Shown here in pieces: positions 10,026 through 54,538 of a stretch of 64,000 nt of DNA. Numbering within the stretch: position 1 is the first letter of the stretch; the number at the start of each line of letters is the position of its first letter. Source of the DNA: Anaerolineales bacterium (GTDB lineage Bacteria; Chloroflexota; Anaerolineae; Anaerolineales; UBA11579); NCBI GenBank assembly GCA_963675375.2, contig OY776212.2:1651404-1715403 (forward strand). The letters are read 5' to 3'. A program made the position numbers and the translations under genes. The notes below the pieces were generated by a model that was not told the DNA's origin, made no database searches, and saw only the letters and a list, made by a program, of their open reading frames with translations.

Positions 10026-10766
10026 ATGGATTGTTTATCGGAAGTAATGAATGGTTTGGGGGATGGCGTTGTTGAGAAAATCTCTGTGGGGACGCATTGG
10101 GCTTCTGTGGTGGTCTCTCAAAATGGGGAACGACATTGTGGGTTGGCTTCAAACCCGGTGAAGGATTTTCAGGCAGATGAAGCGTTTCGATCTGCCCTGG
10201 CTGCCTACGAGAAAAAAACTGCTTTAGAATTGTGCCAACTGGCATTGGACCAGGAAGCGCCTTTTTCCAGTATTGGCGTGGCCGCGATCAACGCACTGCT
10301 CCCGATGCAGCCAGAACGATGGGTAGACCGCAACGCCGGGGAGGTGCTGGCCGAAAAAGGGAAGGGAAAACGGGTAGCCCTGGTAGGCCATTTTCCCTTT
10401 GTGCCGGAACTGCGAGAGCAAGCCGGGCACCTGGATGTTTTGGAACTGCGCCCGCGCGATGGAGACACCCCGGCAAGCGAAGCCCCCAGGGTTATTCCAC
10501 AGGCGGATGTGGTGGCGATCACAAGTATGGCGTTTGTCAACGGCACCATGCCGGGATTGCTGGATTTGTGCGTACCGGAGACGTACCTGGTGATTCTGGG
10601 GCCGAGTACACCGCTTAGCCCGATCTTATTTGATAAGGGCGTTAATATGCTGTGCGGCAGTATTGTGGAAGATATTGATCCTGTTGTAGTGGGTGTGGAA
10701 AGCGGAGAGAGTTTCCGCCAGTTCAAATCTCGGGGAGTACGATTGGTGACGATTGAGCAAGTATGA
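10026..10766 (+). CDS. DUF4213/DUF364 Rossmann-like putative metal-chelation protein
   Basis: The pattern RVALVGHFPFV...ADVVAITSMAFVNGTMPGLL...LVILGPSTPLSP matches the DUF364 family signature as I remember it. Confidence 0.55.
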   Translation: MDCLSEVMNGLGDGVVEKISVGTHWASVVVSQNGERHCGLASNPVKDFQADEAFRSALAAYEKKTALELCQLALDQEAPFSSIGVAAINALLPMQPERWVDRNAGEVLAEKGKGKRVALVGHFPFVPELREQAGHLDVLELRPRDGDTPASEAPRVIPQADVVAITSMAFVNGTMPGLLDLCVPETYLVILGPSTPLSPILFDKGVNMLCGSIVEDIDPVVVGVESGESFRQFKSRGVRLVTIEQV

Positions 10767-13669: not shown

Positions 13670-13830
13670 TATTCCCAGTGGTCTCCATGATTGTATAGGT
13701 TAAGAATGGGGGGATGCGATTAACCCCTCTTGGATTTTACGGTGAGCAGGTGTTGCACTCGTGCCTTTCCTCACAAGATTTAGTGTAGCATACATTTAAA
13801 AGGCAGGGTAGAGCGGAGACCGGTAAATCG

Positions 13831-16721: not shown

Positions 16722-19475
16722 TTGATAGAGAATCCAGATCTCATTCCTTGGCAAATAAGTTTTGGAAGGTTTTATGTTCCAATGGCAGGAAGATATGATA
16801 ATGACAGGTTTCAGGAGAATATCAAAATGAGCCGCGAGGAAAATGAAATTAAACGTCTCAATAAAGAAGTATTGGAGCTTCGTGCGCAGATTGAGGGGTT
16901 AAAAGAAGAACTTACCCAAAAAAGCTGGGAAAGACAGGACCGTTGGTGGGAAGTCCTTGAGAATATGTTTGAGGGCTGCCAGATCATCGGTTTTGATTGG
17001 CGCTATCTATATATCAATGAATCTGTTGCGGGACATGCTCAACTGCCCAGGGAGGATTTATTAGGCAAAACAATGATGGAAGTTTTTCCGGGCATTGTGG
17101 ATACCAGGGTGTTTAAAGAGCTGAGGCGGTGTATGGAAAAACACACTCCCCATGTGATGGAAAATAAATTCATCTATCTGGATGGTACCTCAAGATGGTT
17201 TGAACTGCGTATTCAGCCTGTGTCCGAGGGGTTGATTATCTTTTCGGAAGATATTTCTCAGAAAAAACGAGACCAAGAAATTTTAAATGAAAATGAGGAA
17301 AAGCTCCGGCTGTTTACCGAGCATGCACCGGCTTCCTTGGCGATGTTTGATAAGGAAATGTGTTATCTTGCCGTCAGCGACCGGTGGCTTAAAAGTTACG
17401 GTTTGGAAGGACAGAATATTATCGGCCGCTCACATTATGAGATCTTCCCGGAGTCAGCAGATGAGTGGAAACAATTCCACCAGCGCGGGTTGGCTGGGGA
17501 AGCGTTCACAGTAGATGAAGATAAAATTATCCTAGAGGATGGCACATTGCTATGGCTGCATTGGGAAATTTACCCGTGGTATGCGATGGATGACAAGGTG
17601 GGCGGGATTGTTATCTTTACCGAGGACATTACTCGAAGAAAAATTGCTGAAGATCGTTTTAGAGAAAGTCAGCGTAAACTTTCCACGTTGATGAACAATC
17701 TGCCGGGTTTGGCTTATCGCTGCAAAAACGATCAGGATTGGACGATGGAGTTTGTTAGTGAGGGGTGTTTTCCATTGACTGGCTATCATGTTGAGGACAT
17801 GATAGAGAATAAGAATATTGCCTTTGCAGACATTATCCACCCGGAAGATTTAGATCAGGTATGGAAAAATATCCAAATCGCTTTAGAAGAAAAATCCCAT
17901 TTTCAGCTTATCTACCGGATATACACTGCGGAAAACCAAATGAAGTGGGTATGGGAACAGGGGCAAGGAGTTTTAGATGAGAATGGGGAAGTGATCGCCC
18001 TGGAGGGGTTTATTACCGACATTACCCAGGCGAAGATGGCTGAAGAAGCACTGATCCGCAGCGAGGATTTGTTGAATAGAACCGGGGAGGTGGCCAAGGT
18101 AGGGGGATGGGATGTGGACCTGGAAACTAATTTTGTTGTTTGGACGGAAACGACCAAAATGATCCATGAGGTGCCTTTGGATTACCTCCCGACTGTGGAA
18201 ATGGCGCTTCAGTTTTACACACCTGAAAGCCAAGAATTACTCACCCAACGGCTGCAAGAGGCGATTGAACTTGGTAAATCTTACGACCTGGAATTGGAAA
18301 TGATCACCGCCAAGGGAAATCATCTAAAGGTACGCGCGATTGGCAACCCCATTTTTGATCAGGGTAAATGCGTGCACTTGTCCGGGACGATCCAAGATAT
18401 TACTGCCCAAAAAGAAGCGGAAGAAGCGCTGCGGGAGAGCGAGGAAAAATATCGTCTGTTGTTTGAAAATGCCGGTATGGGTATTGCGTATTATTCCCTG
18501 GATGGCAGAGTGCTGGAATATAACAAGATTGCCGAAGAAAATGTGGGCCTGCGAACAGAAGAAGTGGAGGGAAAATCTTTAATTGAGTTGTTTGACGAAG
18601 AATACGGTTCACTGTATTACAACCGGTTGAAAGATGTGGTTAAGACGCGTGAAACAGTGATCTACGAAGATTTTGTGGAAATCCCTACAGGTGAGAGGTG
18701 GTTCAGCTCGTCCTATACCGTGATCACAGATGCTGCCGGTAACCCTACCGGGGTACAAATAATTTCTAACGATATTACCGAACAAAAACTGGCGGCTTTG
18801 TCGCTCAAAGCAAACGAACAGCAGCTCAGGTCTCTTTCGCAACAGTTGTTAACCCTACAAGAAGATGAGCGTAAAAGACTGGCGCAAGACCTGCATGATG
18901 AAGCCGGTCAGGCGATTTCAGTCCTCAAAATATATTTAAATTTGCTGTCCAAAAAGGTAGATGGCAAGTACTCTGAACTCCAGCCGGATATTGATAAATT
19001 ATCTGAGGCGATCAATACCGCCCACGATGATATCCGTGAGTTGGCGTTTTCTCTCCGCCCATCTACCCTGGACTCGTTGGGGCTAGGGGCAGCAGTGGAA
19101 AAATTGTGCCAGTTGATCTCAGAGAACAGCAAGGTAAATATTTCGGTCCAAATTGGAGAAACACCGGCATTATCCGATCAGGCAGGGATCGCGTTATACC
19201 GCATCACGCAAGAGGCATTAAATAATGTCATTATGCATGGAAAAGCGGAGAATGTGTGGGTACAGTTACAGTTTGAAGCGCAAGATGGCCGTATTTGTCT
19301 CTCAATTCGAGATGATGGGATTGGCTTTGTCCCCATTTTATTGCAGGATGTTAAAAGCGGGCTGGGCATTTTGGGGATGCGGGAACGCATGGATTCGATT
19401 GGTGGTGATTTTCAGATCACCTCGGAACCTAGAAAGGGGACTACTATTCTGGCCTGTTATCCGCTGCCAAAGTAG
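16722..19475 (+). CDS. soluble multi-PAS sensor histidine kinase (HisKA_3/NarX-type transmitter)
   Basis: Several PAS/PAC-like repeats, an H-box LAQDLHDEAGQ, and an HATPase region GIGF...GLGILGMRERMDSIGG. No obvious TM helix. The start is uncertain: TTG 16722, ATG 16782 or ATG 16827. Confidence 0.85.
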   Translation: MIENPDLIPWQISFGRFYVPMAGRYDNDRFQENIKMSREENEIKRLNKEVLELRAQIEGLKEELTQKSWERQDRWWEVLENMFEGCQIIGFDWRYLYINESVAGHAQLPREDLLGKTMMEVFPGIVDTRVFKELRRCMEKHTPHVMENKFIYLDGTSRWFELRIQPVSEGLIIFSEDISQKKRDQEILNENEEKLRLFTEHAPASLAMFDKEMCYLAVSDRWLKSYGLEGQNIIGRSHYEIFPESADEWKQFHQRGLAGEAFTVDEDKIILEDGTLLWLHWEIYPWYAMDDKVGGIVIFTEDITRRKIAEDRFRESQRKLSTLMNNLPGLAYRCKNDQDWTMEFVSEGCFPLTGYHVEDMIENKNIAFADIIHPEDLDQVWKNIQIALEEKSHFQLIYRIYTAENQMKWVWEQGQGVLDENGEVIALEGFITDITQAKMAEEALIRSEDLLNRTGEVAKVGGWDVDLETNFVVWTETTKMIHEVPLDYLPTVEMALQFYTPESQELLTQRLQEAIELGKSYDLELEMITAKGNHLKVRAIGNPIFDQGKCVHLSGTIQDITAQKEAEEALRESEEKYRLLFENAGMGIAYYSLDGRVLEYNKIAEENVGLRTEEVEGKSLIELFDEEYGSLYYNRLKDVVKTRETVIYEDFVEIPTGERWFSSSYTVITDAAGNPTGVQIISNDITEQKLAALSLKANEQQLRSLSQQLLTLQEDERKRLAQDLHDEAGQAISVLKIYLNLLSKKVDGKYSELQPDIDKLSEAINTAHDDIRELAFSLRPSTLDSLGLGAAVEKLCQLISENSKVNISVQIGETPALSDQAGIALYRITQEALNNVIMHGKAENVWVQLQFEAQDGRICLSIRDDGIGFVPILLQDVKSGLGILGMRERMDSIGGDFQITSEPRKGTTILACYPLPK

Positions 19476-19675: not shown

Positions 19676-22372
19676 ATGAATAAATCTCCAGACATTATTA
19701 TTCCGACCAAACTCAGTCAGCCGCCTGTCAGGCAAAATTTGGTAGCCCGCCAGGAGATTTTTAAGCGGTTGTCAGAGGGAATTTCACGAAAACTGACCCT
19801 GGTTTCTGCCCCCGCGGGGTTTGGAAAAACTTCTTTAGTGAATGCCTGGCTGCAAATGCAGCTTGCGCCAGTTTCCTGGCTGTCGCTTGATAAACGCGAT
19901 AATGACCTCTCTCGCTTCCTGACATATCTGGAAACATCAATCAGTTCCTCCGTACCTCTGCGGTTCAGCAGCATATTAGAAAGTGAAGGCGGGTCGGACC
20001 AATTTGCCTCCGATTCTATGCTGAAAAATATTCTGGAAAAGCTGTCAAACCAATCCGATTTCAGAATCATTGTTCTAGATGATTATCACTTGATCACTTT
20101 GCCTGCTATTCACGAGGCAATGATCTTCCTGCTGAGCAATTTACCGCAGCCCGAAATGGATGGGAAAGTGCCTGTGCGCGGGTGTCATTTTATGATCATG
20201 ACCCGGTCAGACCCGCCGTTCCCGCTGGCGCGCTGGCGGGTGAGTGGAGAAGTGAATGAGGTTCGCACGGATGATTTACGCTTCTCCTTGGAAGAATCGG
20301 CGGAATTATTGAACCATAACCTCTCACTCGACCTTACCCTGGAAGATATTGCCGAGTTGAAATCTCGCGCCGAGGGGTGGGTGGCAGGGCTGCATCTGGC
20401 CGCGGTCTCCATGCAGGGGCAAGATGCCAAGTTTTGTCATCAATTTATCAACCAACTCAAAGGCAGTTATCGTTTACTGTCCGATTATCTGATCGAAGAA
20501 GTATTCTTACAGCAGCCGAAAAAGGTGCAGGATTTTTTGCTCAAATCCAGTATTCTGGAACGGATGAACGGCGAGCTGTGTGACGCAGTCTTAATGGATC
20601 ATGGCAGCAAAGTGATTTTAGAGTCATTAGACCGGCACAATGTTTTTGTAGTTCCGTTGGACCACGAGCGCCAGTGGTACCGGTATCATCATTTCTTCGC
20701 CGATGTACTCTCGGAGCGTTTTAAGGCATCGGAACAGGAAGATTTTGCCCTGCTGCATGCCCGTGCAGCTCAATGGCTGCAAGATCATGGGTTTATCGAA
20801 GGTAGTGTACATCATTGGTTGTTGGCAGGTGAAGAAGATCGTGCCGATAAGTTGGTGGTAGATGTTTCTACTAAACTACTGGATACCGGGAAATTTTACG
20901 AACTGCGTACCCTCGTGGAGCTTTTCCCGGAAGAAAGCTTTAAGGATCGTCCCTGGCTGTGTGTGCTGCGTGCTTGGGTTTGTTATTTCTACCAACCAGA
21001 TGAGATGGAAATGTGGTTGGTACAAGCAGAACGGATCATTGCCGAAAAGGAAGAAGATACCCAGGAAGTAAGAGAAATTCTCGGGCATGTAGCTGCACTG
21101 CGCTCGATTATACGGATCAACATGGGAAGATTAGAGGAAGCCCTGGGGATTGCTGCGGAAGGGATTGCGATCCTTCCAAAGAAAAACTTTAGTATCAGCG
21201 GCTTGCTGCTGAATGCCATGGGAATTATCTGGATGTTGAAGGGGGATTTCAAGAAATCCCTCGATTATTATATGCAGGCAAAAACCACCCTGCTGCAGGG
21301 CGGTAACTACACAGCGGCGGCCAGAGCTTTAGATCTGGCAGGCAACATTGAAGTGGAGCGGGGAAGTCTGCACCACGCGCTGAGCATCTATAAAGAAGGA
21401 TATTCCTTGTCGGGGGTGGGCAAGGTGATGTATGAGTGGAACCAGTTGGATGAAGCCTTGGAAGCCTTTGAAAGAGCGTATGATTACAGCAAACGAGACG
21501 GCATCGCGGTAGAGATTTCACGATGTGTCCCCCTGGCTCGCGCTTTGGTGGAACTGGGGAAAATGGAGAAAGCTAAAAAGTTCTTTGACCGCTATGCCGA
21601 GTATATCGGCTATTCCAGCCTGACCCCGTGGCTCGATTCGGAATTGGTCGCTTTCCAGATTGAATATTTATCTGCATTAGGTGATTTCCGGGCGGTCGAT
21701 TATCTGGCTTCTAACCGGGGAATTGTGCTGGATAAAGATTTTGAACCGGCCTTAGAGGCAGAATATACCGCTTATGCCTTCTCTTTCCTCAGGCGCGGTG
21801 ATCTTGATGAGGTGATGCGGACAGCGCCGGTGTTGGAACAACGCATGGCACAATGGGGGCTGACCGGCAGGCAGATCAACCTGCTGGCCATCCAGGCTGC
21901 TGCCTACCAACTGGCAGGCGAAACAGACACTGCCCAGACATTGATCGCCAAAGCACTTACGTTGGGCGCTGAAGAGGGGCATATCCGTACCTTTGTTGCC
22001 CTAGGAGAACCGGTCTTAGAAGTGATTGCCGGACTTTCCCAAAATGAATTTGAGCTAGATCGCGCTTATGTGCGCGAAGTGATTGCCGCCTTCCTGAACA
22101 GTCCCAGTGGGGGGACGCTCAGCAGTCCGGTCCACCATGAATATATGGGCGACCAACCGGATCAGCAAGGGGTGCTGATTGAGCCGCTGACTTCTCGCGA
22201 ATTAGAAGTGCTGCATTTGGTGGCGGCCGAACAAAATAACCAGGAAATTGCCGGTAAGTTAAATATTTCGATCAATACGGTCAAGACACATGTTTCGAAT
22301 ATCTTTACCAAGCTGGGGGTCAGCAACCGCCTACAGGCGGCTAACCGCGCACGTCAGTTAGATATTATCTAG
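19676..22372 (+). CDS. LAL-type regulator A (MalT-like ATPase + helical repeats + LuxR HTH)
   Basis: 898 aa. Walker A LVSAPAGFGKTSL, a long helical/TPR-like middle region, and a C-terminal LTSRELEVLHLVAAEQNNQEIAGKLNISINTVKTHVSNIFTKLGV. Confidence 0.85.
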   Translation: MNKSPDIIIPTKLSQPPVRQNLVARQEIFKRLSEGISRKLTLVSAPAGFGKTSLVNAWLQMQLAPVSWLSLDKRDNDLSRFLTYLETSISSSVPLRFSSILESEGGSDQFASDSMLKNILEKLSNQSDFRIIVLDDYHLITLPAIHEAMIFLLSNLPQPEMDGKVPVRGCHFMIMTRSDPPFPLARWRVSGEVNEVRTDDLRFSLEESAELLNHNLSLDLTLEDIAELKSRAEGWVAGLHLAAVSMQGQDAKFCHQFINQLKGSYRLLSDYLIEEVFLQQPKKVQDFLLKSSILERMNGELCDAVLMDHGSKVILESLDRHNVFVVPLDHERQWYRYHHFFADVLSERFKASEQEDFALLHARAAQWLQDHGFIEGSVHHWLLAGEEDRADKLVVDVSTKLLDTGKFYELRTLVELFPEESFKDRPWLCVLRAWVCYFYQPDEMEMWLVQAERIIAEKEEDTQEVREILGHVAALRSIIRINMGRLEEALGIAAEGIAILPKKNFSISGLLLNAMGIIWMLKGDFKKSLDYYMQAKTTLLQGGNYTAAARALDLAGNIEVERGSLHHALSIYKEGYSLSGVGKVMYEWNQLDEALEAFERAYDYSKRDGIAVEISRCVPLARALVELGKMEKAKKFFDRYAEYIGYSSLTPWLDSELVAFQIEYLSALGDFRAVDYLASNRGIVLDKDFEPALEAEYTAYAFSFLRRGDLDEVMRTAPVLEQRMAQWGLTGRQINLLAIQAAAYQLAGETDTAQTLIAKALTLGAEEGHIRTFVALGEPVLEVIAGLSQNEFELDRAYVREVIAAFLNSPSGGTLSSPVHHEYMGDQPDQQGVLIEPLTSRELEVLHLVAAEQNNQEIAGKLNISINTVKTHVSNIFTKLGVSNRLQAANRARQLDII

Positions 22373-22389
22373 TTCCTTGTAACTTTCTG

Positions 22390-22458
22390 AAATCATACCG
22401 GGGGGTGATGACATCTCACCCGAACTTTGTATAATGGCAATGTGTAAATTTTCACAAT
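22390..22458 (+). promoter_or_regulatory. conserved upstream element of cytochrome cassette A
   Basis: The 29-nt block aaatcataccggggggtgatgacatctca (22390-22418) is identical to 31189-31217. A second shared block, attttcacaat (22448-22458), matches 31249-31259. Confidence 0.55.
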
Positions 22459-22483
22459 AATTGTCTAATATGTAAAGGAAGAG

Positions 22484-23299
22484 ATGAAGAATAAACTACA
22501 TTCCCCCCACAAACTGCTGCTGTTGATGAGCCTGATCGCAGTATTGCTCGTTAGCGGTTGTTCATCTAATTCAGCAGTTCCATCTACTTACCAGCCTGAT
22601 CCCGCCGATGTAGACCTGGAAGGGTGGGCAGAAGCCTATCCCCAAATCTATGCGGACTGGGAATCTTCCATTCACGGTACTGCCTACTTGAGTGGAGATG
22701 AGAACGCCCCAACCTGTAACGACTGCCACGATGCCCCGGTTGAGGGTGAGGTGGTCAATACGGCCGAGTTTCATCTGCAAGTCCCCAACCGCTGTGCCCG
22801 CTGCCACAACGACGACGCACTGATGGCCGATTATGGGATTGCCGATGATGTGTACGAAACCTACCTAGCAGACTTCCACGGGACGACGATCCAGTATTAC
22901 GCGGAAAACGACCCGACTGCGCTGCGCGACGAAGCAGTGTGCAGTGACTGCCACGACAGCCACGCCGTTTACCCGCAGGACGATGAACGTTCCAGCGTAG
23001 CGGCGGTCAATTTACAAACTACCTGTGCCAAGTGCCATGCCGGTGCCAGCGAAGCTTTCACCAGTGCATACGGACACTACCGCCCGATCCAGGACCCGGT
23101 ATCAAAAGCCGATACCACCATCGTTTTCATTGTCAAACTGGCTTACCAGGCCCTGATCCCGATCACCCTGGGCGGTATGTTGGCCTACATCGGCCTGGAT
23201 ATCTTCTTCCGCATCAAGAAGAAAAACACCGCAGCCCCAGCGGAAGAAACCACGGAAACCCCCGAACCTGAGACAAACGAAAGTGAGGCGTCATCATGA
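22484..23299 (+). CDS. tetraheme c-type cytochrome lipoprotein with C-terminal membrane helix (module A)
   Basis: Lipobox LLVSGC, four CxxCH motifs (CNDCH, CARCH, CSDCH, CAKCH), and a hydrophobic C-terminal segment. The stop overlaps the next start (ATGA). Confidence 0.85.
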
Positions 23300-24500
23300 G
23301 CAGCGTTACGACAACTTCCCCCATTCAACAAGAAGAAACCCTCATTCGTTTCGACCTCAGCCAGCGCATTCAGCACATTGTGATGATGGTTTCTTTCATC
23401 ACCCTGGCGCTGACCGGCTTGCCGCAATCCTTTTCAGACGCCGGCTGGGCTAAAGCCTGGATGTCGCTGTTCGGGGGTATCGCCGGGGTGCGCAAGGTGC
23501 ACCATCTGGCAGCTGTATTGATGGTCTTTGTGTTCGTCTACCACTTCATTGTGGTGATCGGCGACCTATTCAAGAAAGACACCGGACGCTGGATGCTGCC
23601 GGTCAAGCAAGACCTGACCGATGCTTCCCATGCAGTCAAGTACCTGCTGGGCAAGGTAGACAGCCCCCCGCAGTACGGGCGTTTTGACTTCCGCCAGAAG
23701 CTGGAATACTGGGCCTTGATCTGGGGGACGATCCTGATGGGGATCACCGGGTTGGTGCTCATGTTCCCGGTGGCGTTTGCCAACTTTTTGCCGGGCGAGG
23801 TGATCTATGCCGCCAAAGCGGCGCATGGGTTAGAAGCTTTGCTTGCAGTGGCATCCATTGTCAGTTGGCACATGTACAATGCGCACTTTGCGCACGGTAT
23901 CTTCCCGATGGATAAGAGCATCTTCACCGGCAAGATCAGCGTGGAGCGCATGAAGGAAGAACACCCCTTGGAATACGAAGCCTTGATGTCTGCCCGAGCG
24001 GCGGAAGCACAGGCTGTTGAAGCAAGCGAACAGAGCGAAGTGGCAGAAACCACTTCGGATGAGAAATAGGGATTAGCCATGTCAAACAAACTAAAACTAA
24101 TCATCGCCATTGTGTTGGTGATCGTGATGATCCCGACCATGGGCAGTGTGTATGTCAAAGATAACCTGCACAGCAGCAACTACTGCGCCGGCTGCCACGA
24201 AGATCACTACACCACCTGGGCAGCACCGGAGAGTGAATACTCCCTGGCGCACCAGCATGCCGAAATGGGTGTCTCTTGCCAGAGCTGCCACCAGCGCACA
24301 ATGGGCGAGTCGGTCATGGAAGTGGTCAACTATGCGACGGGTAATTACTATTACCCCTTCCCGGAGATCGAATTGGGGATGGATACCTGCTTTGCCTGCC
24401 ACGGCAGCTATGCGGAGATCATCCCGCTGACCGATCCGTTGATCACGGGGGAAGAGCGCAACCCGCACGATGGACACTGGGGTGAGCTGGAATGCGGCAC
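22589..24500 (+). repeat. near-identical copy A of the three-gene cytochrome cassette
   Basis: Collinear with 31394-33239. By manual comparison, 22589-23218 differs from 31394-32023 at 7 positions in 630 nt. Only the gene termini and linkers diverge. Confidence 0.85.
23296..24069 (+). CDS. membrane b-type cytochrome, FdnI/PhsC/Ni-hydrogenase cytochrome b-like (module A)
   Basis: About four TM helices with candidate heme-ligand His residues ([29 protein letters not shown]). Confidence 0.75.
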
Positions 24501-24594
24501 ATGCCACAATGCGCACCGAGATTCTGTGGATTACTGCGCGGACTGCCACAACCCGGTCACCGATATGCCCGGATGGGTAAGCGGCACAAAGTAG
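24079..24594 (+). CDS. membrane-anchored small pentaheme c-type cytochrome (module A)
   Basis: An N-terminal TM helix LKLIIAIVLVIVMIPT and five CxxCH motifs (CAGCH, CQSCH, CFACH, CGTCH, CADCH) in 171 aa. Confidence 0.85.
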   Translation: MSNKLKLIIAIVLVIVMIPTMGSVYVKDNLHSSNYCAGCHEDHYTTWAAPESEYSLAHQHAEMGVSCQSCHQRTMGESVMEVVNYATGNYYYPFPEIELGMDTCFACHGSYAEIIPLTDPLITGEERNPHDGHWGELECGTCHNAHRDSVDYCADCHNPVTDMPGWVSGTK

Positions 24595-24713
24595 TATCTG
24601 AGGGGCGGTTCCCGATTGGAACCTGAAAATAGTTAGGAAATTAGAGATTAGGAAAGAATTAATATCTCTTGATACAAATTTTATAAAAATAAAGTAACGA
24701 AGGAGATTTAACA

Positions 24714-26333
24714 ATGAAGCAAGAAGAGTTCGACAAGAAAAATTTGTCCCGCCGAGAGTTTCTCAAGGGCGCAGGGGTAAGTGTAGCCGCATTGGCAGGT
24801 AGCAGTGTGCTGACCGGCTGCAAACCGAAAGCTGCCCCTGCAGAAGGCGAAGCAACCGATACCCCCGCGGCCGGTGGAACGTACTCATTCGAGACACCCC
24901 CGGAACCGATTGCGGACAAAGATATTACCGAAACCGTGACCGCCGACGTAGTTGTGGTTGGTGCCGGTGATGCCGGCCTGGCTGCCACTTTGGCTGCGGC
25001 CGAAGCGGGTGCAAGCGTTATTTTGCTCGAAAAGAGCGCGTCTTTCAACTCGCGCGGTTTTGGCAATGGTGCGCTGGATACCAAGTACCACAAAGAACAA
25101 GGCATTGAACTGGACAAAGGCGCCATCGTCAATGACCTGGTAGAGTTTGCCGGTGCAAAAGTGGACCAGGCAAAGATCGAGTTGTGGGCCGACCACAGCG
25201 GTGAAGTGTACGACCACCTGATCGATCTGGCAACCGAAGCTGAATTACCGATCATGCTGTTCCCCGCCGGACAAGACCCAGAAGCCCGCTACTTTGAATA
25301 TCCCACCTGTTTGGTCTTTGGTTCCACCATGCAGCAGGCCGACCTGCTGTCTGTGGTAGAAGCCGAAGCGATCAAGCAAGGCGCTGACATTCGCTACGAA
25401 ATGACTGCTCAGCAGTTGGTGCAGGAAGATGACGGCACGGTGAGCGGTGTGATCGTTACCAATGCTGCTGGTGAATATGTCAAGTTCGTGGGAGAGAAGG
25501 GCGTTATCCTGGCAACCGGTGACTATGGTCATAACGAAGAAATGATGGATAAGTGGTGTTCCTGGGCAAAGAACGTAGACATGAATGTGTACGTGCCCGC
25601 AGTGAACACCGGCGACGGCCACAAGATGGGTTTGTGGGCCGGCGGCCAGATGGAAATTGGCCCGCATGCACCCATGATCCACACCTTGGGCGGCGGTACC
25701 TTCTCCATGAACCCGGTGCTGCGCGTGAACGGCAAGGGCTTGCGCTACGAGAACGAAGACATCCCGAACCCCTATATCTGCAACAGCCGTCTGCGCCAAC
25801 CGGGCAACGTTGCTTACGCAATTTTTGACTCCAACTACGCAGAATATATCCCGAACACCATCCCCGGCTTTGCCCGCACCACGGCCGTCTCCGAAATGAC
25901 CGCCGAAACGCTGGCATCTGAAGTGGAAAGCGGCGCAGTGCTGAAAGCCGATACCCTGGAAGATTTGGCCGAGCAGATGGGTGTACCGGCAGACAACTTT
26001 GTTGCCACCGTAGAACGCTACACCGAGTTGGCCTTGGCCGGCGAGGACGAAGATTTCCATAAGAATCCCCGCATGATGGCTGCCATCAACCAGGCACCGT
26101 TCTATGCCTCCAAGGTATTCGCCGTACTGCTGGTCACCCTGGGCGGTTTCCGCACCAACACAGACCTGCAAGTTTTGGACGACAACTTTGATGTGATCCC
26201 CGGCCTGTACGCTGCTGGGAATGTCTCCGGCGGTTTCTACGCCAACGACTACCCGGTTTTGGCTGCCGGTCTGAGCCACGGCCGCTGCATCACCGAAGGG
26301 TACCTGGCAGGAAAGCACGCTGCCAACGCATAA
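24714..26333 (+). CDS. Tat-exported lipoprotein FAD-dependent oxidoreductase A1 (fumarate reductase/urocanate reductase/KstD flavoprotein class)
   Basis: Twin-arginine motif SRREFLKGAG, lipobox LTGC, dinucleotide fold DVVVVGAGDAGLAATLAAAEAGASVILLEK, and C-terminal GLYAAGNVSGG. Confidence 0.85.
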   Translation: MKQEEFDKKNLSRREFLKGAGVSVAALAGSSVLTGCKPKAAPAEGEATDTPAAGGTYSFETPPEPIADKDITETVTADVVVVGAGDAGLAATLAAAEAGASVILLEKSASFNSRGFGNGALDTKYHKEQGIELDKGAIVNDLVEFAGAKVDQAKIELWADHSGEVYDHLIDLATEAELPIMLFPAGQDPEARYFEYPTCLVFGSTMQQADLLSVVEAEAIKQGADIRYEMTAQQLVQEDDGTVSGVIVTNAAGEYVKFVGEKGVILATGDYGHNEEMMDKWCSWAKNVDMNVYVPAVNTGDGHKMGLWAGGQMEIGPHAPMIHTLGGGTFSMNPVLRVNGKGLRYENEDIPNPYICNSRLRQPGNVAYAIFDSNYAEYIPNTIPGFARTTAVSEMTAETLASEVESGAVLKADTLEDLAEQMGVPADNFVATVERYTELALAGEDEDFHKNPRMMAAINQAPFYASKVFAVLLVTLGGFRTNTDLQVLDDNFDVIPGLYAAGNVSGGFYANDYPVLAAGLSHGRCITEGYLAGKHAANA

Positions 26334-26605
26334 ATAAAACATACTGAAAGTGCTGCGAGCACTAACATTAACACTTTGACACAAGACAGTGCCCGGTACA
26401 TTGAGAAAAGAACGTGCCGGGCACTGTCGACAAAGCAGATGAGGGAAAAGGTAAGAGAGAGAAAATCTCCTGGAGAATGAAGAGGAATTATGACAATGGG
26501 GAAGGCCTGTTAACTATGGGTTGCTAAATGCTGTGTCAGGTTTAGCCTGGTATGATGCCAGGCTAAATTAAACGTTCAATCTTTTTACACAAGGAGAAAA
26601 AAAGA

Positions 26606-28213
26606 ATGAGTACAGAAGATAAGCACAAGAAAGACCTGTCCCGTCGAGAGTTTTTGAAGGGTGCAGGGCTCGGTGTGGCAGCGATCGCGGGAGGAAGCGT
26701 ACTCTCCGGCTGCAAACCGAAAGCAGCATCAGAGGGGGAAGCCGAGGAACAAGCATCAACTGGATTTTCATTTGAAACGCCGCCAGAGCCAATTGCAGAA
26801 AAAGAGATTACCGACACCGTTACCGCAGATGTAGTTGTGATTGGAGCCGGGGTTGCCGGCGTAATGGCGGCCATGTCAGCCGCGCAAGCCGGTGCCAGCA
26901 CCGTACTGCTCGAAAAATCTGAAACCTACAATGCCCGCGGCGGCCACAACGCTGCTTTGGGCAGCAAGCTGCAAAAAGCCAATGGGATTGATTACGACCC
27001 GAACGAAGTGATCAACGCCCTTGTTCGCTGGTCTGGACACAAAGTAGACCAACGCTTGCTGATGTTGTGGGCCAACAATGTGAATGAAACCATTGACCTG
27101 ATGATTGACATGGCTGAAGCAGAAGGCATGGAAGTGATCCTGTGGGGTAATGATGTGCCCGATGCCGCTTACCCGGAATACAAGACTGTGCACATGTTCG
27201 GCGGTATGGACGAGAAAAATGTGACCATGCTGTGTGAAAAAGCGTTCCTGGAGGCCGGCGGGGAAGTGTACTACTCAACCCCTGCTGCACAGCTGGAACG
27301 GGAAGACGGCGGCCGTGTCACCGGCGTGATCGCCGGCGAACCTGGCGCTTACACGCGCTTTGTTGCCAACAAGGGTGTGATCTTATGCACCGGCGACTAC
27401 GGCAATGACCCCGAGTTGGTTGCCCGTTACTGCCCCAAAGCTGCTGATGTAGACATGAATGTGTACGCACCGCAGGTTAACACCGGCGATGGGCACAAGA
27501 TGGGTATGTGGATTGGCGCCGCCATGCAAGAAGAAGACCCGGCCGCGACTGTGATGCATAACTTGGGTGCCTTGAGCCTGACTTCCAACCCCTTCTTGCG
27601 GGTGAACGGGGTGGGCGAACGCTACGAAAACGAAGATGTACCGCTTACCTACATGGTCAACAAGATCCAACTGCTGCCCGACAACACCGCCTATACTGTC
27701 TTCGACAGCACCTACGGCGACGAACTGGCCAACTTTACGCCCAGCTTTGCGCGTGTGACCGCCATGAGCGACAGTGTGCAGGAAGAACTGGATGCAGCTG
27801 TTGAAGCCGGCACGACCGTCTTCAAAGCCGATACAATCGAAGAATTGGCCGAAAAACTCAACGTCCCCGCCGCCAACCTTAAAGCCACTGTTGACCGCTA
27901 CAATGAACTGGCTGCCAATGGTGAGGATGTCGACTTCGGTAAAGACCCCAGCATCCTGACCCCGATTGATACTGCCCCGTTCTACGGCGCACGCATCACG
28001 GTTGCCCTCCTGGTGGTTTTGGGTGGTTTGAACACCAACACCAACCTGGAAGTGCTGGATACAGAAGGGAATGTGATCCCCGGTCTGTATGCTGCCGGCA
28101 ACACAGTGGGCAACTTCTTTGCCAACGATTATCCGGTCATCGTCCCCGGCCTGAGCCACAGCCGCGCTTTGGTATTCGGCCGCCTGGCCGGTCAGACCGC
28201 TGCAAACGCCTAA
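26606..28213 (+). CDS. Tat-exported lipoprotein FAD-dependent oxidoreductase A2 (paralog)
   Basis: SRREFLKGAG, lipobox LSGC, DVVVIGAGVAGVMAAMSAAQAGASTVLLEK and GLYAAGN. Clearly paralogous to A1 over its full length. Confidence 0.85.
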   Translation: MSTEDKHKKDLSRREFLKGAGLGVAAIAGGSVLSGCKPKAASEGEAEEQASTGFSFETPPEPIAEKEITDTVTADVVVIGAGVAGVMAAMSAAQAGASTVLLEKSETYNARGGHNAALGSKLQKANGIDYDPNEVINALVRWSGHKVDQRLLMLWANNVNETIDLMIDMAEAEGMEVILWGNDVPDAAYPEYKTVHMFGGMDEKNVTMLCEKAFLEAGGEVYYSTPAAQLEREDGGRVTGVIAGEPGAYTRFVANKGVILCTGDYGNDPELVARYCPKAADVDMNVYAPQVNTGDGHKMGMWIGAAMQEEDPAATVMHNLGALSLTSNPFLRVNGVGERYENEDVPLTYMVNKIQLLPDNTAYTVFDSTYGDELANFTPSFARVTAMSDSVQEELDAAVEAGTTVFKADTIEELAEKLNVPAANLKATVDRYNELAANGEDVDFGKDPSILTPIDTAPFYGARITVALLVVLGGLNTNTNLEVLDTEGNVIPGLYAAGNTVGNFFANDYPVIVPGLSHSRALVFGRLAGQTAANA

Positions 28214-28392: not shown

Positions 28393-31161
28393 ATGCTGAA
28401 CAGATTTCCGGATATGATTATTCCCACCAAGTTGAATCAGCCGCTTGTCAGGGCGGACTTGGTGACGCGCACCAATTTGGATGAACGCTTGCGCGAAGGG
28501 CTGACAAAAAAACTGACCCTTGTATCTGCCCCGGCCGGATTTGGTAAGACAACCCTGATCTCGGCCTGGCTGAACCATTTACCTTATCAGGCTTCCTGGT
28601 TATCGTTAGATCAACGGGATAACAATTTTTCTCGTTTCCTGGCTTACTTGGAGATTTCGTTAAATCCTTTCCGGTCAAACAAAGAATGTTTGTACGAAAA
28701 CTTCACGTCTGCCGACCACCAATATACCGAACAGTTTCTTGAGAAAGCCCTGCAGAAGATGGCAAACCAACGGCCTTTCCGCCTGTTGGTGCTGGACGAT
28801 TACCATTTAATCACCAATCAAAAGGTACACAATACCCTCGTCTTCCTGCTCAACAATCTTCCCTTGCCCGATCCTTCTTTCAAGGGCGGAGGGAAAGGGT
28901 GTCATGTGGTGTTGCTCACTCGCTCAGATCCGCCTTTCCCGGTGGCGCGCTGGCGGGTGCATCATCAGGTCAACGAGATTAGAACGGATGACCTGCGCTT
29001 TTCTTTGGAAGAAACTGCCCAACTTTTCAATCATTCGATGCAGTTAGGGCTTTCTTTAGAAGATGTCGCCGAATTGAAATCGCGTGCCGAGGGGTGGGTG
29101 GCCGGTTTGCAGCTGGCCGGGGTTTCCCTGCAGGGTCAAAAACCGCGCAACCACCATCATTTCATCAGCCAGATCAAGGGGAGTTACCGCCTGCTGGCCG
29201 ACTTTTTGATCGAAGAAGTCTACTTACAGCAAACGCCGGAGATCCAAGATTTCCTCCTGAAGACCAGTATTTTAGATCGGATGAACGGCGAGTTGTGCGA
29301 TGCATTGCTGCAAAGTTTTGGCGGGAACAAAATCCTGACTTTTTTAGAGCGCAACAATGTCTTTGTAGTCCCATTAGACCACGACCGTCATTGGTACCGC
29401 TATCATCACTTTTTTGCCGAGGTGCTTGCCGACCGCCTGAAAGCGATCCAGGATGAAGAGTATAAACAACTCCATATCCGAGCGGCGCAGTGGCTGGAAG
29501 AACATGAATTTATAGAAGATAGTGTGCGCCACTGGCTGCAAGCCAAAGACTACCAACATGCCTCTAGCCTGATCGTCAGGACGGCCTCTAAATTGTTGGA
29601 TCAGGGTAAGTTTTATATTCTGCGCAGCCTGGTGGAATTGTTCCCCGAAGAATCCTTCCAGCGGTCTCCCTGGTTGAGCATTTACCGCTCCTGGACTTGT
29701 TTTATGCTGGAACCTGCTGAAATGGAGACCTGGTTGATGTCCTCTGAACGGGTGATTGACAGCATGATCGAGGAAGGCGAGACGGATACGGATGAGATCA
29801 ATGAAATGCTGGGCAATATTGCCGCTATCCGCGCTCTGGCAGCCGTGCGGCAGGGAGATTTGGAAAAGACCCTGTCGTTAGCGCCTTATGCCCTGGCACT
29901 TCTGCCTGAAAAAGCGATCAAAGTGCGCGGCCTGGTGTTCAACGCCATCGGCACCAGCTGTATGTTGAAAGGCGAGCAGGAGAAAGCGCTGGAGCATTTC
30001 ATGGAAGCCAAAACCATCCTGCGCAAGGGCGGTAATTTTGGCGGGTCGGCAGATGCGCTCAGTTTTGCCGGAGAAATTCAGCTGGACCGGGGAGAGCTGC
30101 GTCTTGCTTTAGACACCTTCAAAGAAGCCATTTCGTTGGAGAAGTACCATTCCGGCGGGGAACCTTGTTATGTCAGCCAGGCGTATAGTGGGGTGGGGCA
30201 AATTTTGTTTGAGTGGAATCAACTGGATGAGGCATTTTGGAACTTCCAAAACGGCTATCAATACAGCGGGCGGATGGGGGTTTCTAACCAGATTTCTTGT
30301 GCCATCCCGATGGTGGCAGCCTGGTTGGAGTTGGGCCAATTGGATAAAGCCGAAGAAGTCTTGAGCCAGTACAGCGGGTATATTGGGCATACTTCGCTCA
30401 CCCCGTGGGTAGACTCGCGGCTGGTTGCCACCCAAATCCATTTTCTGGCTGCTCAAGCAGATTTTCGCGAGATCGACCATTTGATCCGCTACCGGGGAAT
30501 CGATTTAGGGGAACATTTTACCCTGACGCGGGAACCGGAATACACCGCGGTAGCGCTGTCTTACTTGATGCGCGGCAATATGAAACAGGCGGTCAACCTC
30601 TCGACGCGCCTGGAGGGACGCGTGGGGGCATTGGGCAGCACAGGCCGTCAAATCCGGCTGTTGGCGATCTTGGCGGCTTCTCTCAGTTTGCTCGGCCAGC
30701 AAAAGGCCGCACTGAAAAAGGTTGCCAGAGCTTTCAAACTGGCAGGCAGCGAAGGGTTTATCCGCAGCTTTGTGGCTATGGGGGAACCGATGCTGTCTCT
30801 GATTGCCGAATTAGCCGATTCGGAATTTGTGGAAACTTACCGGCTCGACAAGGCTTACCTGGGCGAGGTGGTGTCTGCTTTCATCGCTGGCGAAGATGGC
30901 AGTGCCTTTTACAACCCGCTGCGTACCGAACCAGCCCGCGCGATGGGGAATATGCCGGGACTAATTATGGAGCCATTGACCGAACGCGAGTTGGAAGTTT
31001 TGCAGCTGCTTGCCGCCGAGAAAAACAACCGAGAAATTGCCAGCCGGTTGAGCATTTCGATCAATACGGTCAAGACGCATATCGCCAATATTTACAGCAA
31101 GCTGGGGGTCAGCAACCGGTTACAGGCCGCTAACCGGGTTCGGCAGCTTAAAATTTTCTAA
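28393..31161 (+). CDS. LAL-type regulator B (paralog of regulator A)
   Basis: 922 aa. Walker A LVSAPAGFGKTTL and a C-terminal LuxR HTH (LTERELEVLQLLAAEKNNREIASRLSISINTVKTHIANIYSKLGV). Collinear with regulator A but heavily substituted. Confidence 0.85.
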   Translation: MLNRFPDMIIPTKLNQPLVRADLVTRTNLDERLREGLTKKLTLVSAPAGFGKTTLISAWLNHLPYQASWLSLDQRDNNFSRFLAYLEISLNPFRSNKECLYENFTSADHQYTEQFLEKALQKMANQRPFRLLVLDDYHLITNQKVHNTLVFLLNNLPLPDPSFKGGGKGCHVVLLTRSDPPFPVARWRVHHQVNEIRTDDLRFSLEETAQLFNHSMQLGLSLEDVAELKSRAEGWVAGLQLAGVSLQGQKPRNHHHFISQIKGSYRLLADFLIEEVYLQQTPEIQDFLLKTSILDRMNGELCDALLQSFGGNKILTFLERNNVFVVPLDHDRHWYRYHHFFAEVLADRLKAIQDEEYKQLHIRAAQWLEEHEFIEDSVRHWLQAKDYQHASSLIVRTASKLLDQGKFYILRSLVELFPEESFQRSPWLSIYRSWTCFMLEPAEMETWLMSSERVIDSMIEEGETDTDEINEMLGNIAAIRALAAVRQGDLEKTLSLAPYALALLPEKAIKVRGLVFNAIGTSCMLKGEQEKALEHFMEAKTILRKGGNFGGSADALSFAGEIQLDRGELRLALDTFKEAISLEKYHSGGEPCYVSQAYSGVGQILFEWNQLDEAFWNFQNGYQYSGRMGVSNQISCAIPMVAAWLELGQLDKAEEVLSQYSGYIGHTSLTPWVDSRLVATQIHFLAAQADFREIDHLIRYRGIDLGEHFTLTREPEYTAVALSYLMRGNMKQAVNLSTRLEGRVGALGSTGRQIRLLAILAASLSLLGQQKAALKKVARAFKLAGSEGFIRSFVAMGEPMLSLIAELADSEFVETYRLDKAYLGEVVSAFIAGEDGSAFYNPLRTEPARAMGNMPGLIMEPLTERELEVLQLLAAEKNNREIASRLSISINTVKTHIANIYSKLGVSNRLQAANRVRQLKIF

Positions 31162-31188
31162 AATAAGTCCTCTATCAGACCATTGAAT

Positions 31189-31259
31189 CAAATCATACCG
31201 GGGGGTGATGACATCTCATCCTGCTTATCCGTATGCTAAGAATGTGGATATTTTCACAA
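31189..31259 (+). promoter_or_regulatory. conserved upstream element of cytochrome cassette B
   Basis: The same 29-nt block and the same attttcacaat block as in 22390-22458. Confidence 0.55.
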
Positions 31260-31285
31260 TCTGAATACATTTAACCAAGGAAAAT

Positions 31286-32083
31286 ATGAGAAGAAAAAGA
31301 CAAAAATATTCGATAGGCCCGGTACGTACGCTCTGTATCTGGGTCTTGCTGCTCGCCAGCGGATGTTCTAGTGTTGGCGATCTGGCGGTTGCATACCAGC
31401 CTGATCCCGCCGATGTAGACCTGGAAGGGTGGGCAGAAGCCTATCCCCAAATCTATGCGGACTGGGAATCTTCCATTCACGGTACTGCCTACCTGAGTGG
31501 AGATGAGAACGCCCCGACCTGTAATGACTGCCACGATGCCCCGGTTGAGGGTGAGGTGGTCAATACGGCCGAGTTTCATCTGCAAGTCCCCAACCGCTGT
31601 GCCCGCTGCCACAACGACGACGCACTGATGGCCGAGTATGGGATTGCTGATGATGTGTACGAAACCTACCTGGCAGACTTCCACGGGACGACGATCCAGT
31701 ATTACGCGGAAAACGACCCGACTGCGCTGCGCGACGAAGCAGTGTGCAGTGACTGCCACGACAGCCACGCCGTTTACCCGCAGGACGATGAACGTTCCAG
31801 CGTAGCGGCGGTCAATTTACAAACTACCTGTGCCAAGTGCCATGCCGGTGCCAGCGAAGCTTTCACCAGTGCATACGGACACTACCGCCCGATCCAGGAC
31901 CCGGTATCAAAAGCCGATACCACCATCGTTTTCATTGTCAAACTGGCTTACCAGGCCCTGATCCCGATCACCCTGGGCGGTATGTTGGCCTACATCGGCC
32001 TGGACATCTTCTTCCGCATCAAGCGCAAGAACGCCAAGCAAAACACCGAACCCGAAACTGACGAAAGCGAGGCGCAGTCATGA
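31286..32083 (+). CDS. tetraheme c-type cytochrome lipoprotein (module B)
   Basis: Lipobox LLASGC and four CxxCH. The conserved core (YQPD...FFRIK) differs from copy A at one residue (D to E); the signal peptide and C-terminal tail differ. Confidence 0.85.
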
Positions 32084-33239
32084 CCCATTCAACTTCCACA
32101 CCAATGCCGCAGGAAGAAACCATGATCCGTTTCGACCTCAGCCAGCGCATTCAGCACATTGTGATGATGGTTTCCTTCATCACCCTGGCGCTGACCGGCT
32201 TGCCGCAATCCTTTTCAGACGCCGGCTGGGCCAAAGCCTGGATGTCGCTGTTCGGGGGTATCGCCGGGGTGCGCAAGGTGCACCATCTGGCAGCTGTATT
32301 GATGATCTTCGTGTTCGTCTACCACTTCATTGTGGTGATCGGTGACCTGTTCAAGAAAGACACCGGACGCTGGATGCTGCCGGTCAAGCAAGACCTGACC
32401 GATGCTTCCCATGCGGTCAAATACCTGCTGGGCAAAGTGGACAGCCCCCCGCAGTACGGGCGTTTTGACTTCCGCCAGAAGCTGGAATATTGGGCCTTGA
32501 TCTGGGGGACGATCCTGATGGGGATCACCGGGTTGGTGTTGATGTTCCCGGTGGCGTTTGCCAACTTTTTGCCGGGCGAGGTGATCTATGCCGCCAAAGC
32601 AGCGCATGGGTTGGAAGCACTCCTGGCAGTGGCATCCATTGTCAGCTGGCACATGTACAATGCGCACTTTGCGCACGGTATCTTCCCGATGGATAAGAGC
32701 ATCTTCACCGGCAAGATCAGCGTAGAGCGCATGAAGGAAGAACATCCTTTGGAATACGAAGCCTTGATGGCGGCACAGACGACAGCCCGCACCGAAACAG
32801 AAGAATAGGAGCCAGCCATGTCAAACAAACTAAAACTAATCATCGCCATTGTGTTGGTGATCGTGATGATCCCGACCATGGGCAGTGTGTATGTCAAAGA
32901 CAGCTTGCACAGCACCAATTACTGTGCCGGCTGCCACGAAGATCACTACACCACCTGGGCAGCACCGGAGAGTGAATACTCCCTGGCGCACCAGCATGCC
33001 GAAATGGGTGTCTCTTGCCAGAGCTGCCACCAGCGCACAATGGGTGAGTCGGTCATGGAAGTGGTCAACTATACCACCGGTAATTACTATTACCCCTTCC
33101 CGGAGATCGAATTGGGGATGGATACCTGTTTTGCCTGCCACGGCAGCTATGCGGAGATCATCCCGCTGACCGATCCGTTGATCACGGGGGAAGAGCGCAA
33201 TCCGCACGATGGACACTGGGGTGAGCTGGAATGCGGCAC
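31394..33239 (+). repeat. near-identical copy B of the three-gene cytochrome cassette
   Basis: Partner of 22589-24500. Confidence 0.85.
32080..32808 (+). CDS. membrane b-type cytochrome (module B)
   Basis: Nearly identical to 23296-24069 except at the extreme N- and C-termini. ATGA overlap with the upstream gene. Confidence 0.75.
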
Positions 33240-33333
33240 GTGCCATAAAATGCACCGCGACTCGATTGATTACTGCGCCAGCTGCCATAACTCGGTCACC
33301 GATGCGCCGGGGTGGACGAAGCCAAGCCCATAG
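32818..33333 (+). CDS. membrane-anchored small pentaheme c-type cytochrome (module B)
   Basis: Five CxxCH motifs. Differs from copy A at a few residues, mostly in the last 35 aa. Confidence 0.85.
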   Translation: MSNKLKLIIAIVLVIVMIPTMGSVYVKDSLHSTNYCAGCHEDHYTTWAAPESEYSLAHQHAEMGVSCQSCHQRTMGESVMEVVNYTTGNYYYPFPEIELGMDTCFACHGSYAEIIPLTDPLITGEERNPHDGHWGELECGTCHKMHRDSIDYCASCHNSVTDAPGWTKPSP

Positions 33334-33438
33334 GGTATGACCGCGATTTAAGTAAGCAAGGAAAATGAAGAGTTTTCTGGGAAAGTTTTATTCCCTCAAA
33401 CTCGGAGTGAATAATCAAAAGTTCAAGGAGAAAAAAGA

Positions 33439-54498: not shown

Positions 54499-54515
54499 TA
54501 ATCAATCATTGATTA
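54499..54515. promoter_or_regulatory. AT-rich perfect palindrome (Fur-family-box-like) 24 nt upstream of the LRR protein start
   Basis: taatcaat-c-attgatta, embedded in gataatatttattcattaatcaatcattgattatcatt. Confidence 0.35.
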
Positions 54516-54538
54516 TCATTGTTTGTCTGGAGGGGAAG

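Follow-up and report, generated by a model that had tools for sequence, protein, structure and literature searches.

Layout of two tandem respiratory modules

The 64,000-nucleotide stretch of an Anaerolineales genome analysed here (contig OY776212.2; hereafter the window) carries two tandem modules on the same, forward strand: module A at 19676–28213 and module B at 28393–35073. Each consists of a large ATP-binding LuxR-family (LAL) regulator, a tetraheme c-type cytochrome (cytC1), a membrane cytochrome b (cytB) and a pentaheme c-type cytochrome (cytC2), followed by two flavoenzymes in module A and a single one in module B. Our subject is the near-identity of the cores of the three cytochrome genes across the two modules, which very probably results from recurrent interlocus gene conversion between ancient tandem copies. 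No further copy of the cytochrome cassette and no further LAL regulator was found within the window. All features given below lie on the forward strand.

The tetraheme genes are cytC1_A (22484–23299, 271 amino acids) and cytC1_B (31286–32083, 265 amino acids). Both encode lipoproteins; in cytC1_A, four CXXCH motifs are accompanied by the lipobox LVSGC and a match to Pfam Cytochrome_C7 (1.9e-8). The protein closes with a C-terminal transmembrane helix and a short acidic cytoplasmic tail. An initial annotation of this DNA had described a cassette of tetraheme and pentaheme genes, both of which are present, and had left unmentioned the gene between them (23296–24069 in module A, 32080–32808 in module B). 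This third gene encodes an FdnI-like membrane cytochrome b of 257 amino acids in cytB_A and 242 in cytB_B, with matches to Pfam Ni_hydr_CYTB (PF01292) of 3.9e-14 and 5e-14, respectively, and a match of cytB_A to FdnI (PDB 1kqf_C) at 3.5e-10. The Pfam score (53.2 bits against a cut-off of 30.1) and the heme-ligand histidines, invariant across thirty-three aligned homologues (H27, H69, H70, H83, H177, H192, and H197), place it among the FdnI/HydC-type diheme cytochromes b. With TIGR01583, the model for the gamma subunit of formate dehydrogenase, it scores 75.6 bits, short of the cut-off of 115.85, and no FdnGH lies beside it, its neighbours being multiheme cytochromes and flavoenzymes.

The pentaheme genes, cytC2_A (24079–24594) and cytC2_B (32818–33333), each encode 171 amino acids with five CXXCH motifs and a Pfam Cytochrom_c3_2 domain (5.4e-18 and 1e-17); cytC2_A has an N-terminal membrane anchor. 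Residues 57–164 match the heme domain of the Shewanella flavocytochrome c fumarate reductase (1d4c_A, 8.5e-6). The top NCBIfam match is Cgr1 (NF051471), yet at 59.4 bits against a cut-off of 340, and over residues 55–169 only.

Downstream lie flav_A1 (24714–26333, 539 amino acids; Pfam FAD_binding_2, 2e-46) and flav_A2 (26606–28213, 535 amino acids; 7.3e-46) in module A, and flav_B (33439–35073, 544 amino acids; 9.9e-42) in module B. All of the flavoenzymes share a leader, read from the sequence, with the twin-arginine motif SRREFLKGAG and a lipobox (LTGC in flav_A1); their Pfam TAT_signal matches are under the cut-off. Their FAD_binding_2 domain, this export signal and the cytochrome genes directly upstream identify them as respiratory flavin reductases, Tat-exported and FAD-dependent. 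None reaches a substrate-defining equivalog: the best match, VprA, scores 189–239 bits against a cut-off of 600, and flavocytochrome c (TIGR01813) scores 169–178 against 285. The two enzymes of module A are 53 per cent identical in amino acid sequence, and flav_B is 46 per cent identical to each of them.

The regulators have the architecture of LAL proteins (an NTPase domain, a MalT-like TPR region and a C-terminal GerE/LuxR helix-turn-helix), with only a weak match for the NTPase. In LAL_A (19676–22372, 898 amino acids) the Pfam matches are TPR_MalT (1.3e-41), GerE (5.8e-19) and, under the Pfam cut-off, AAA_16 (7e-4). LAL_B (28393–31161, 922 amino acids) is 52.6 per cent identical to full-length LAL_A by tblastn.

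By homology, the FdnI-like cytochrome b would oxidise quinol in the membrane, and the tetraheme lipoprotein and the anchored pentaheme cytochrome would relay the electrons along the outer face, with cytC2 as a split-off flavocytochrome c heme domain. The exported reductases would take up these electrons and reduce organic acceptors. We infer the function of this three-gene wire from sequence. Each LAL regulator presumably senses the substrate of its own module, by analogy with the flavin reductases of gut bacteria, where adjacent regulators sense the substrate.

Identity within and between genomes

Pairwise alignment of the two modules (MAFFT --auto) gave a sliding identity of 93–100 per cent in three blocks and 13–70 per cent elsewhere. 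Together the three core blocks differ at 43 of about 1706 nt (97.5 per cent identity). The segments 22589–24500 and 31394–33239 are collinear, as the initial annotation had reported, and the 66-nt gap in their lengths corresponds to three spacer indels of 21, 3 and 42 nt. Its manual count for the tetraheme core also proved exact: 22589–23218 and 31394–32023 differ at 7 of 630 nt, of which six are synonymous and one changes an amino acid. Its description of the cassette as almost nucleotide-identical holds for this core (about 99 per cent) and is too strong for the cytB and cytC2 cores, which are 96–97 per cent identical.

Synonymous divergence (dS; all values by NG86) is strongly non-uniform. 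It is 0.044 in the tetraheme core, 0.187 in the cytB core and 0.111 in the cytC2 core, with dN of 0.002–0.013, and outside the cores of these cytochrome genes it rises to 1.5–1.7 or more. The two LAL regulators (54 per cent amino acid identity) have a dS of 2.1, and the flavoenzymes compared with one another (46–53 per cent) have 1.4–1.8. The genes have thus aged unequally, and the regulators and flavoenzymes are heavily substituted, both as first proposed.

The breaks in identity are as sharp as originally described and fall at recognizable places. On the left, identity ends at 22586/22589, or residue 36 of cytC1, about ten residues past the lipobox cysteine (Cys26); this puts it at the boundary between the signal peptide with its tether and the folded domain. 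It ends again at 23219, in the cytoplasmic tail that follows the C-terminal transmembrane helix of cytC1, across 23989–24074, in the cytB tail, and at about 24500, 94 nt ahead of the cytC2 stop codon.

A protein search with cytB led to a 95 per cent identical protein on a 116-kb metagenome contig in ENA. This contig, the source of loci L001 and L082, contains both modules; it is syntenic with the window, at 90.6 per cent nucleotide identity over 19.7 kb, and the synteny extends beyond. We refer to it as the sister genome. A scan of genome contigs found no genome closer than 70 per cent cytB identity, and hence no further close orthologous loci. Four cassette copies could therefore be compared: wA and wB from the window, and lA and lB from the sister genome. 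In a four-way alignment, flanks and spacers are 84–100 per cent identical between orthologues and 14–80 per cent between paralogues. In the cores, the identity of wA and wB is 88–100 per cent, above that of wA with lA and of wB with lB.

The same reversal is seen in individual sites. Among informative quartet sites in the flanks and spacers, 224 support orthology (wA=lA, wB=lB) and three support grouping within genomes (wA=wB, lA=lB), versus 12 and 72 in the cores (Fisher p = 1e-53). The regulators (738 orthology sites versus 11 concerted) and flavoenzymes (563 versus 2) show concerted sites at noise level only. LAL_B has its orthologue in a 915-amino-acid LAL protein of the sister genome (dS 0.38); the LAL orthologues there also have a recorded WHD_MalT domain. 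Across the tetraheme, cytB and cytC2 cores, wA and wB differ by 7, 31 and 12 nt, whereas orthologues differ by 38–40, 52–57 and 54–55 nt. The dS of orthologous cores is 0.30–0.65 (0.30 for the tetraheme core), and that of the lA and lB tetraheme cores is 1.05.

Sites with the orthology pattern delimit three tracts. The first, in the tetraheme core, spans 22587–23218 in module A and 31392–32023 in module B, bounded by orthology-pattern sites at 22586 and 23219; its interior holds no orthology sites, 13 concerted sites and 87 sites at which only lB differs. The second lies in the cytB core (23347–23988 in A, about 32128–32769 in B), with flanking orthology-pattern sites at 23346 and 23989, and contains 24 A/B differences; it may represent more than one tract. 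The third comprises the ribosome-binding site (RBS) and core of cytC2 (24075–24506 in A, 32814–33245 in B), between orthology-pattern sites at 24074 and 24507, with 12 A/B differences and 36 concerted sites versus four orthology sites. The last 90 nt or so of cytC2, which hold the fifth CXXCH, are outside this tract and unconverted. Two clusters of six A/B differences each, at 23820–23844 and 24162–24186, lie inside the homogenised tracts. The former includes orthology-pattern sites at 23820 and 23839 and so is either an unconverted island or the junction of two tracts.

We used our own implementation of a GENECONV-like test, in which polymorphic sites are permuted (2000 shuffles each). None of the 2000 shuffles reached the observed fragment for wA and wB (22594–24486), for wB and lA (22646–23200) or for lA and lB (24138–24483), giving p <= 0.0005 in each case. 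Separate tracts are present in cytB and cytC2 of the sister genome, and none in its tetraheme gene. Both genomes group within themselves at 23 sites in cytB and 36 in cytC2, and lA and lB share exact runs of 137, 98 and 86 nt in these genes, so cytB and cytC2 were converted independently in the two lineages. Interlocus conversion is indicated by paralogues that are closer than orthologues despite synteny, by the depressed dS within tracts, by the significant fragments and by the switches of signal at tract edges. The orthologous locus thus bears out the ongoing homogenisation that the initial annotation had suggested, with cores nearer to each other within a genome and independent tracts in the sister.

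Conversion history and competing explanations

For the tetraheme tract the direction is clear. The wB core differs from lA at 38 nt but at 109 nt from lB, its orthologue, which is the outlier of the four with its singleton sites. In addition, wA and wB share 13 changes absent from both copies of the sister genome, and wB carries seven A-derived residues at positions where lB agrees with three outgroup paralogues of the window genome. Together these distances, shared changes and residues point to conversion from A to B in the window lineage, with the core of cytC1_A copied onto cytC1_B after the lineages split. By dS, this would have happened roughly 15 per cent of the way back to the split. 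Because the spacers and the island at 23820–23844 keep the orthology signal and the core dS values differ, at least three tracts must have formed separately in the window lineage after it parted from the sister genome. There are also hints of older rounds of conversion, since divergence between the lA and lB tetraheme cores is below that of the non-core parts of the gene and of the regulators.

The explanation that we consider very probable is that recurrent gene conversion homogenises the cytochrome cores. An ancient duplication would have produced two adjoining modules, each with a LAL sensor, a three-gene wire and one or two flavin reductases, and non-reciprocal homologous recombination between copies 8.8 kb apart would since have homogenised the three cores repeatedly. 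The youngest tract would be that of the tetraheme core, from A onto B, while the sister lineage would have made its own tracts in cytB and cytC2. Tracts would end where homology collapses, that is, at the signal peptide and tether, in the indel-rich cytoplasmic tails and in the last 30 or so codons of cytC2. Regulators and flavoenzymes would be too diverged for RecA-type exchange and so escape conversion. The outcome would be a standardised, interchangeable wire combined with module-specific sensors and catalysts.

The distribution of exact matches is consistent with this mechanism. In the two inter-core spacers, exact matches between A and B never exceed 7 nt. The longest is 11 nt across the cytC2 tail and the intergenic sequence that follows it, 12 nt for the flavoenzymes and 23 nt for the regulators. 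Between wA and lB, our proxy for unconverted cores, exact runs of 24–59 nt occur. The tract edges would thus fit homology-limited, RecA-type exchange and the classical model of 'escape from concerted evolution' (reviewed in PMC3924837 and PMC3966226). They also bear on the suggestion in the initial annotation that the substrate-specific parts are kept distinct. Regulators and flavoenzymes are indeed distinct and lack any conversion signal, but active keeping is only partly shown, since the lack of homology may explain their distinctness as well as selection does.

Several observations weigh against this account. The right edge of the third tract, at about 24500, is not at an indel, and homology limitation alone is insufficient to explain it. 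Selection that keeps module-specific docking in the cytC2 tail is a possible cause. All copies were compared as assembly consensus, which polishing could homogenise, and the two other near-identical pairs described below are known as proteins only. Just one sister genome is available as DNA, and the call of direction is limited to the tetraheme tract. The electron path and the substrates are predicted by homology. Last, the cytC2 cores are more diverged between genomes than expected (dS 0.54–0.70 and 13–17 amino acids, compared with a background dS of about 0.3), an excess that would need either opposite directions of conversion or a third donor copy.

This excess is one point in favour of a variant in which conversion is real but some tracts came from a third cassette, or from DNA of a closely related strain, and overwrote both A and B. 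Another is that the genome holds at least five cassettes. We nonetheless consider the variant improbable. The wA and wB tetraheme cores are nearest to lA (38–40 nt) and hence of A type, whereas the other tetraheme paralogue cores of the genome are only 87–88 per cent (wC) and 70 per cent (wD and wE) identical, and the third cytC2 (P0151) is clearly more distant. Opposite directions of conversion in the two lineages would suffice for cytC2, and this is probably the simplest explanation of its excess.

The initial annotation had also allowed for a recent recombinational replacement. In its simplest form, the whole cytochrome cassette of module B would have been replaced once by the A copy, through a swap or a fresh segmental duplication, and then have diverged. 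The three blocks are indeed collinear and contiguous over 1.9 kb, and the tetraheme core has a clear A-to-B donor direction. However, the signal-peptide region, the spacer between the cytC1 tail and the cytB head, and the cytB tail keep the orthology of wB with lB together with B-specific indels, and sites with the orthology pattern at 23219–23346 and 23989–24074 contradict a single event. The core dS values also spread four-fold, and the tracts of the sister genome are not the same ones. A single replacement is thus very improbable.

An assembly or polishing artefact, in which cross-mapped reads homogenised more divergent copies in the consensus, is suggested by the nature of the data, since the window genome is a single 4.43-Mb contig and probably a long-read assembly. 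Yet the copies still differ at the 43 scattered sites, the edges of the tracts match both biological boundaries and orthology switches, and copies at about 82 per cent identity would rarely cross-map. Moreover, the independent ENA assembly has the same two modules at the locus with its own, different tracts, and we regard an artefact as highly improbable. Finally, almost no credence can be given to an old duplication that underwent no recombination and looks young in the cytochrome cores because purifying selection, also on codons or mRNA, is much stronger there than in the regulators and flavoenzymes, for although the cores are highly conserved, the cytC1–cytB pair is kept across many phyla and the unconverted lA and lB tetraheme cores are still 89 per cent identical in amino acids, selection is unable to give paralogues common lineage-specific synonymous changes such as those among the 72 sites at which wA=wB differs from lA=lB, or to lower core dS to 0.04–0.19 between wA and wB when it is 0.30–0.65 between orthologues and 1.05 between lA and lB.

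A further proposal goes beyond recurrent conversion, and we hold it as unlikely though worth stating. In this 'plug-and-socket' design, the boundaries would themselves be selected: cores would be interchangeable genome-wide, adaptor segments insulated, the Tat leader a recombination joint, and a 29-nt operator shared. If it is true, the adaptors (signal peptide and tether, tails, and the last 30 or so residues of cytC2) would hold the information for module-specific assembly and docking. The last heme of the Shewanella flavocytochrome c fumarate reductase adjoins the FAD, and the end segment of cytC2 would carry the terminal heme that is the counterpart of this FAD-proximal heme IV of flavocytochrome c3. 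The repeated Tat-lipoprotein leader would serve as the recombination joint for the gain and loss of catalysts, as with the gene indel described below, and identical operators would form a shared regulatory layer above the module-specific LAL sensors.

Related systems, further cassettes and regulatory elements

The mechanism is already known in prokaryotes, and the window is a clean new example of it. The nearest case that we found in the literature is the concerted evolution of the multi-copy haoAB-cycAB (cytochromes c554 and cM552) and amoCAB operons of Nitrosomonadales (Wang and Chen 2018, PMC6053082); our search returned no report of conversion in Anaerolineae multiheme cytochromes or in flavin-reductase modules. 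In the hao-cyc system, as here, multi-copy genes for respiratory c-type cytochromes are held near-identical by conversion, which is recognised by paralogues that are closer than orthologues despite synteny. There, however, whole operons are redundant for one function, whereas here conversion is limited to the folded cores of three genes for electron carriers; they sit in modules whose regulators and catalysts are 46–54 per cent identical, and unconverted spacers interrupt the tracts. Conversion between tufA and tufB, considered with the general model in which paralogues partly escape concerted evolution (Lathe and Bork 2001 and Kondrashov 2007, as cited in PMC6053082), is likewise a homology-dependent, non-reciprocal exchange between dispersed paralogues, with low dS and tracts that end where similarity drops. 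The tuf copies are functionally identical single genes, unlike the functionally diversifying multi-gene modules of the window, where conversion also occurred independently in two sister lineages with different tracts. What sets the window apart is this segmental conversion, confined to three electron-carrier cores and with independent tracts in each lineage.

In gene content, the modules resemble the cgr operon of Eggerthella lenta (Koppel et al. 2018, PMC5953540), which combines a LuxR-type regulator with the Cgr1 cytochrome and the Cgr2 flavin reductase, and the large sets of flavin reductases in gut bacteria (Little et al., bioRxiv 10.1101/2022.12.26.521950). Shared features are an adjacent regulator, a membrane-anchored multiheme cytochrome c, a Tat-exported FAD_binding_2 reductase and the occurrence of many paralogous modules, and the top NCBIfam matches are Cgr1 for cytC2 and vinyl phenol reductase for the flavoenzymes. 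The scores, however, are far under the equivalog cut-offs (59 versus 340 bits for the former and 189–239 versus 600 for the latter). The wire here is also larger by two components, the tetraheme lipoprotein and the FdnI-like cytochrome b; the regulator beside it is a cytosolic LAL protein of the MalT-like type, and the host belongs to the Anaerolineae. The 'regulator + cytochrome + flavin reductase' module of gut Eggerthellaceae would thus extend to Anaerolineae, with a three-protein wire. The Shewanella flavocytochromes FccA and Ifc3 (PDB 1d4c, 1qo8 and 1qjd) offer a second comparison: residues 57–164 of cytC2 align to their N-terminal tetraheme domain, and the flavoenzymes of the window match the flavocytochrome c flavoprotein model. 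In contrast to those fused proteins, the heme domain and the flavoprotein are separate here, the heme protein is membrane-anchored and has a fifth heme, and in module A one heme protein may serve two flavoenzymes.

With the sister genome as an internal control, the case shows how the respiratory arsenal of a bacterium that is expanding its set of reductases can evolve in parts. Recombination standardises electron delivery, whereas sensors and catalysts diversify and come and go at the conserved leader junction. Cytochrome trees of such modules would be expected to show recent conversion in place of module history, with flavoenzyme and regulator trees unaffected. A further expected consequence is that wire cores are interchangeable between modules, with the unconverted cytC2 tail perhaps holding the docking specificity.

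Gain or loss of a catalyst is visible at this locus. In the sister genome, an extra gene for a 758-amino-acid protein resembling old yellow enzyme (OYE-like; Oxidored_FMN and Pyr_redox_2) lies between the cassette of module B and the flav_B orthologue, and is absent from the window. This 3-kb indel is bounded by a direct repeat of about 75 nt, made up of the RBS together with the opening codons of the Tat-lipoprotein leader. The corresponding 75 nt of the window (33425–33499; RBS and the first 20 or so codons of the flav_B Tat leader) align twice in L082, at 10608–10682 and 13611–13685, and form a hybrid junction, in which the leader of the OYE-like gene is matched by the upstream part and first codons and the flav_B leader by the remainder. 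Judging from this junction, module remodelling does occur, at the catalyst position.

The window genome (4,426,327 bp) holds at least five cytochrome cassettes, at least three of them beyond A and B. We compared these further cassettes as proteins (P0003, P0145, P0004, P0151, P0158, P0168 and P0204). The tetraheme paralogues P0168 and P0204 are 99 per cent identical in amino acids across the core and 53 per cent in the signal peptide and tail, and the cytB proteins P0003 and P0145 share all but 2 of 243 residues. For a fifth copy (P0158 and P0004), identity to the others is 82–88 per cent. At the protein level, then, the mosaic of identical cores and diverged ends does not appear to be unique to A and B. 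Among species-representative genomes, the closest relatives are five Anaerolineae loci (L002–L006), which are also the sole loci seen with the added cytC2 and flavoenzymes. The genes for cytC1 and FdnI-like cytB stay together as a conserved pair across many phyla, frequently as two or three tandem copies (L007–L081). Acidobacteriota, Nitrospirota, Gemmatimonadota, Bipolaricaulota and Binatia are among them, and there the pair occurs without cytC2 or flavoenzymes.

The two modules also share a 29-nt promoter- or operator-like element, AAATCATACCGGGGGGTGATGACATCTCA, upstream of cytC1_A (22390–22418), in which an inverted repeat (GGGTGA-N7-TCACCC) overlaps a -35-like ATGACA. An exact second copy lies upstream of cytC1_B (31190–31218), with none expected by chance. 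A promoter-like site at 22408–22435 matches at 11 of 12 positions. The element is invariant in both intergenic regions of the sister genome (L001, positions 9097 and 17903) and is present in the metagenome-assembled genome of a distant member of the Anaerolineales (L003, position 9087). The presence of this candidate operator before both modules, whose LAL sensors differ, suggests either cross-talk or one global regulator in common. A 941-amino-acid open reading frame at 54509–57334, considered as another LAL regulator, was rejected as a trypsin/LRR protein. Directly upstream of module A, the open reading frame at 16722–19475 had been read initially as a LAL regulator as well. It instead encodes a 917-amino-acid multi-PAS histidine kinase of the HisKA_3 type that is kept in the sister genome, and it could provide a further regulatory input to the modules.

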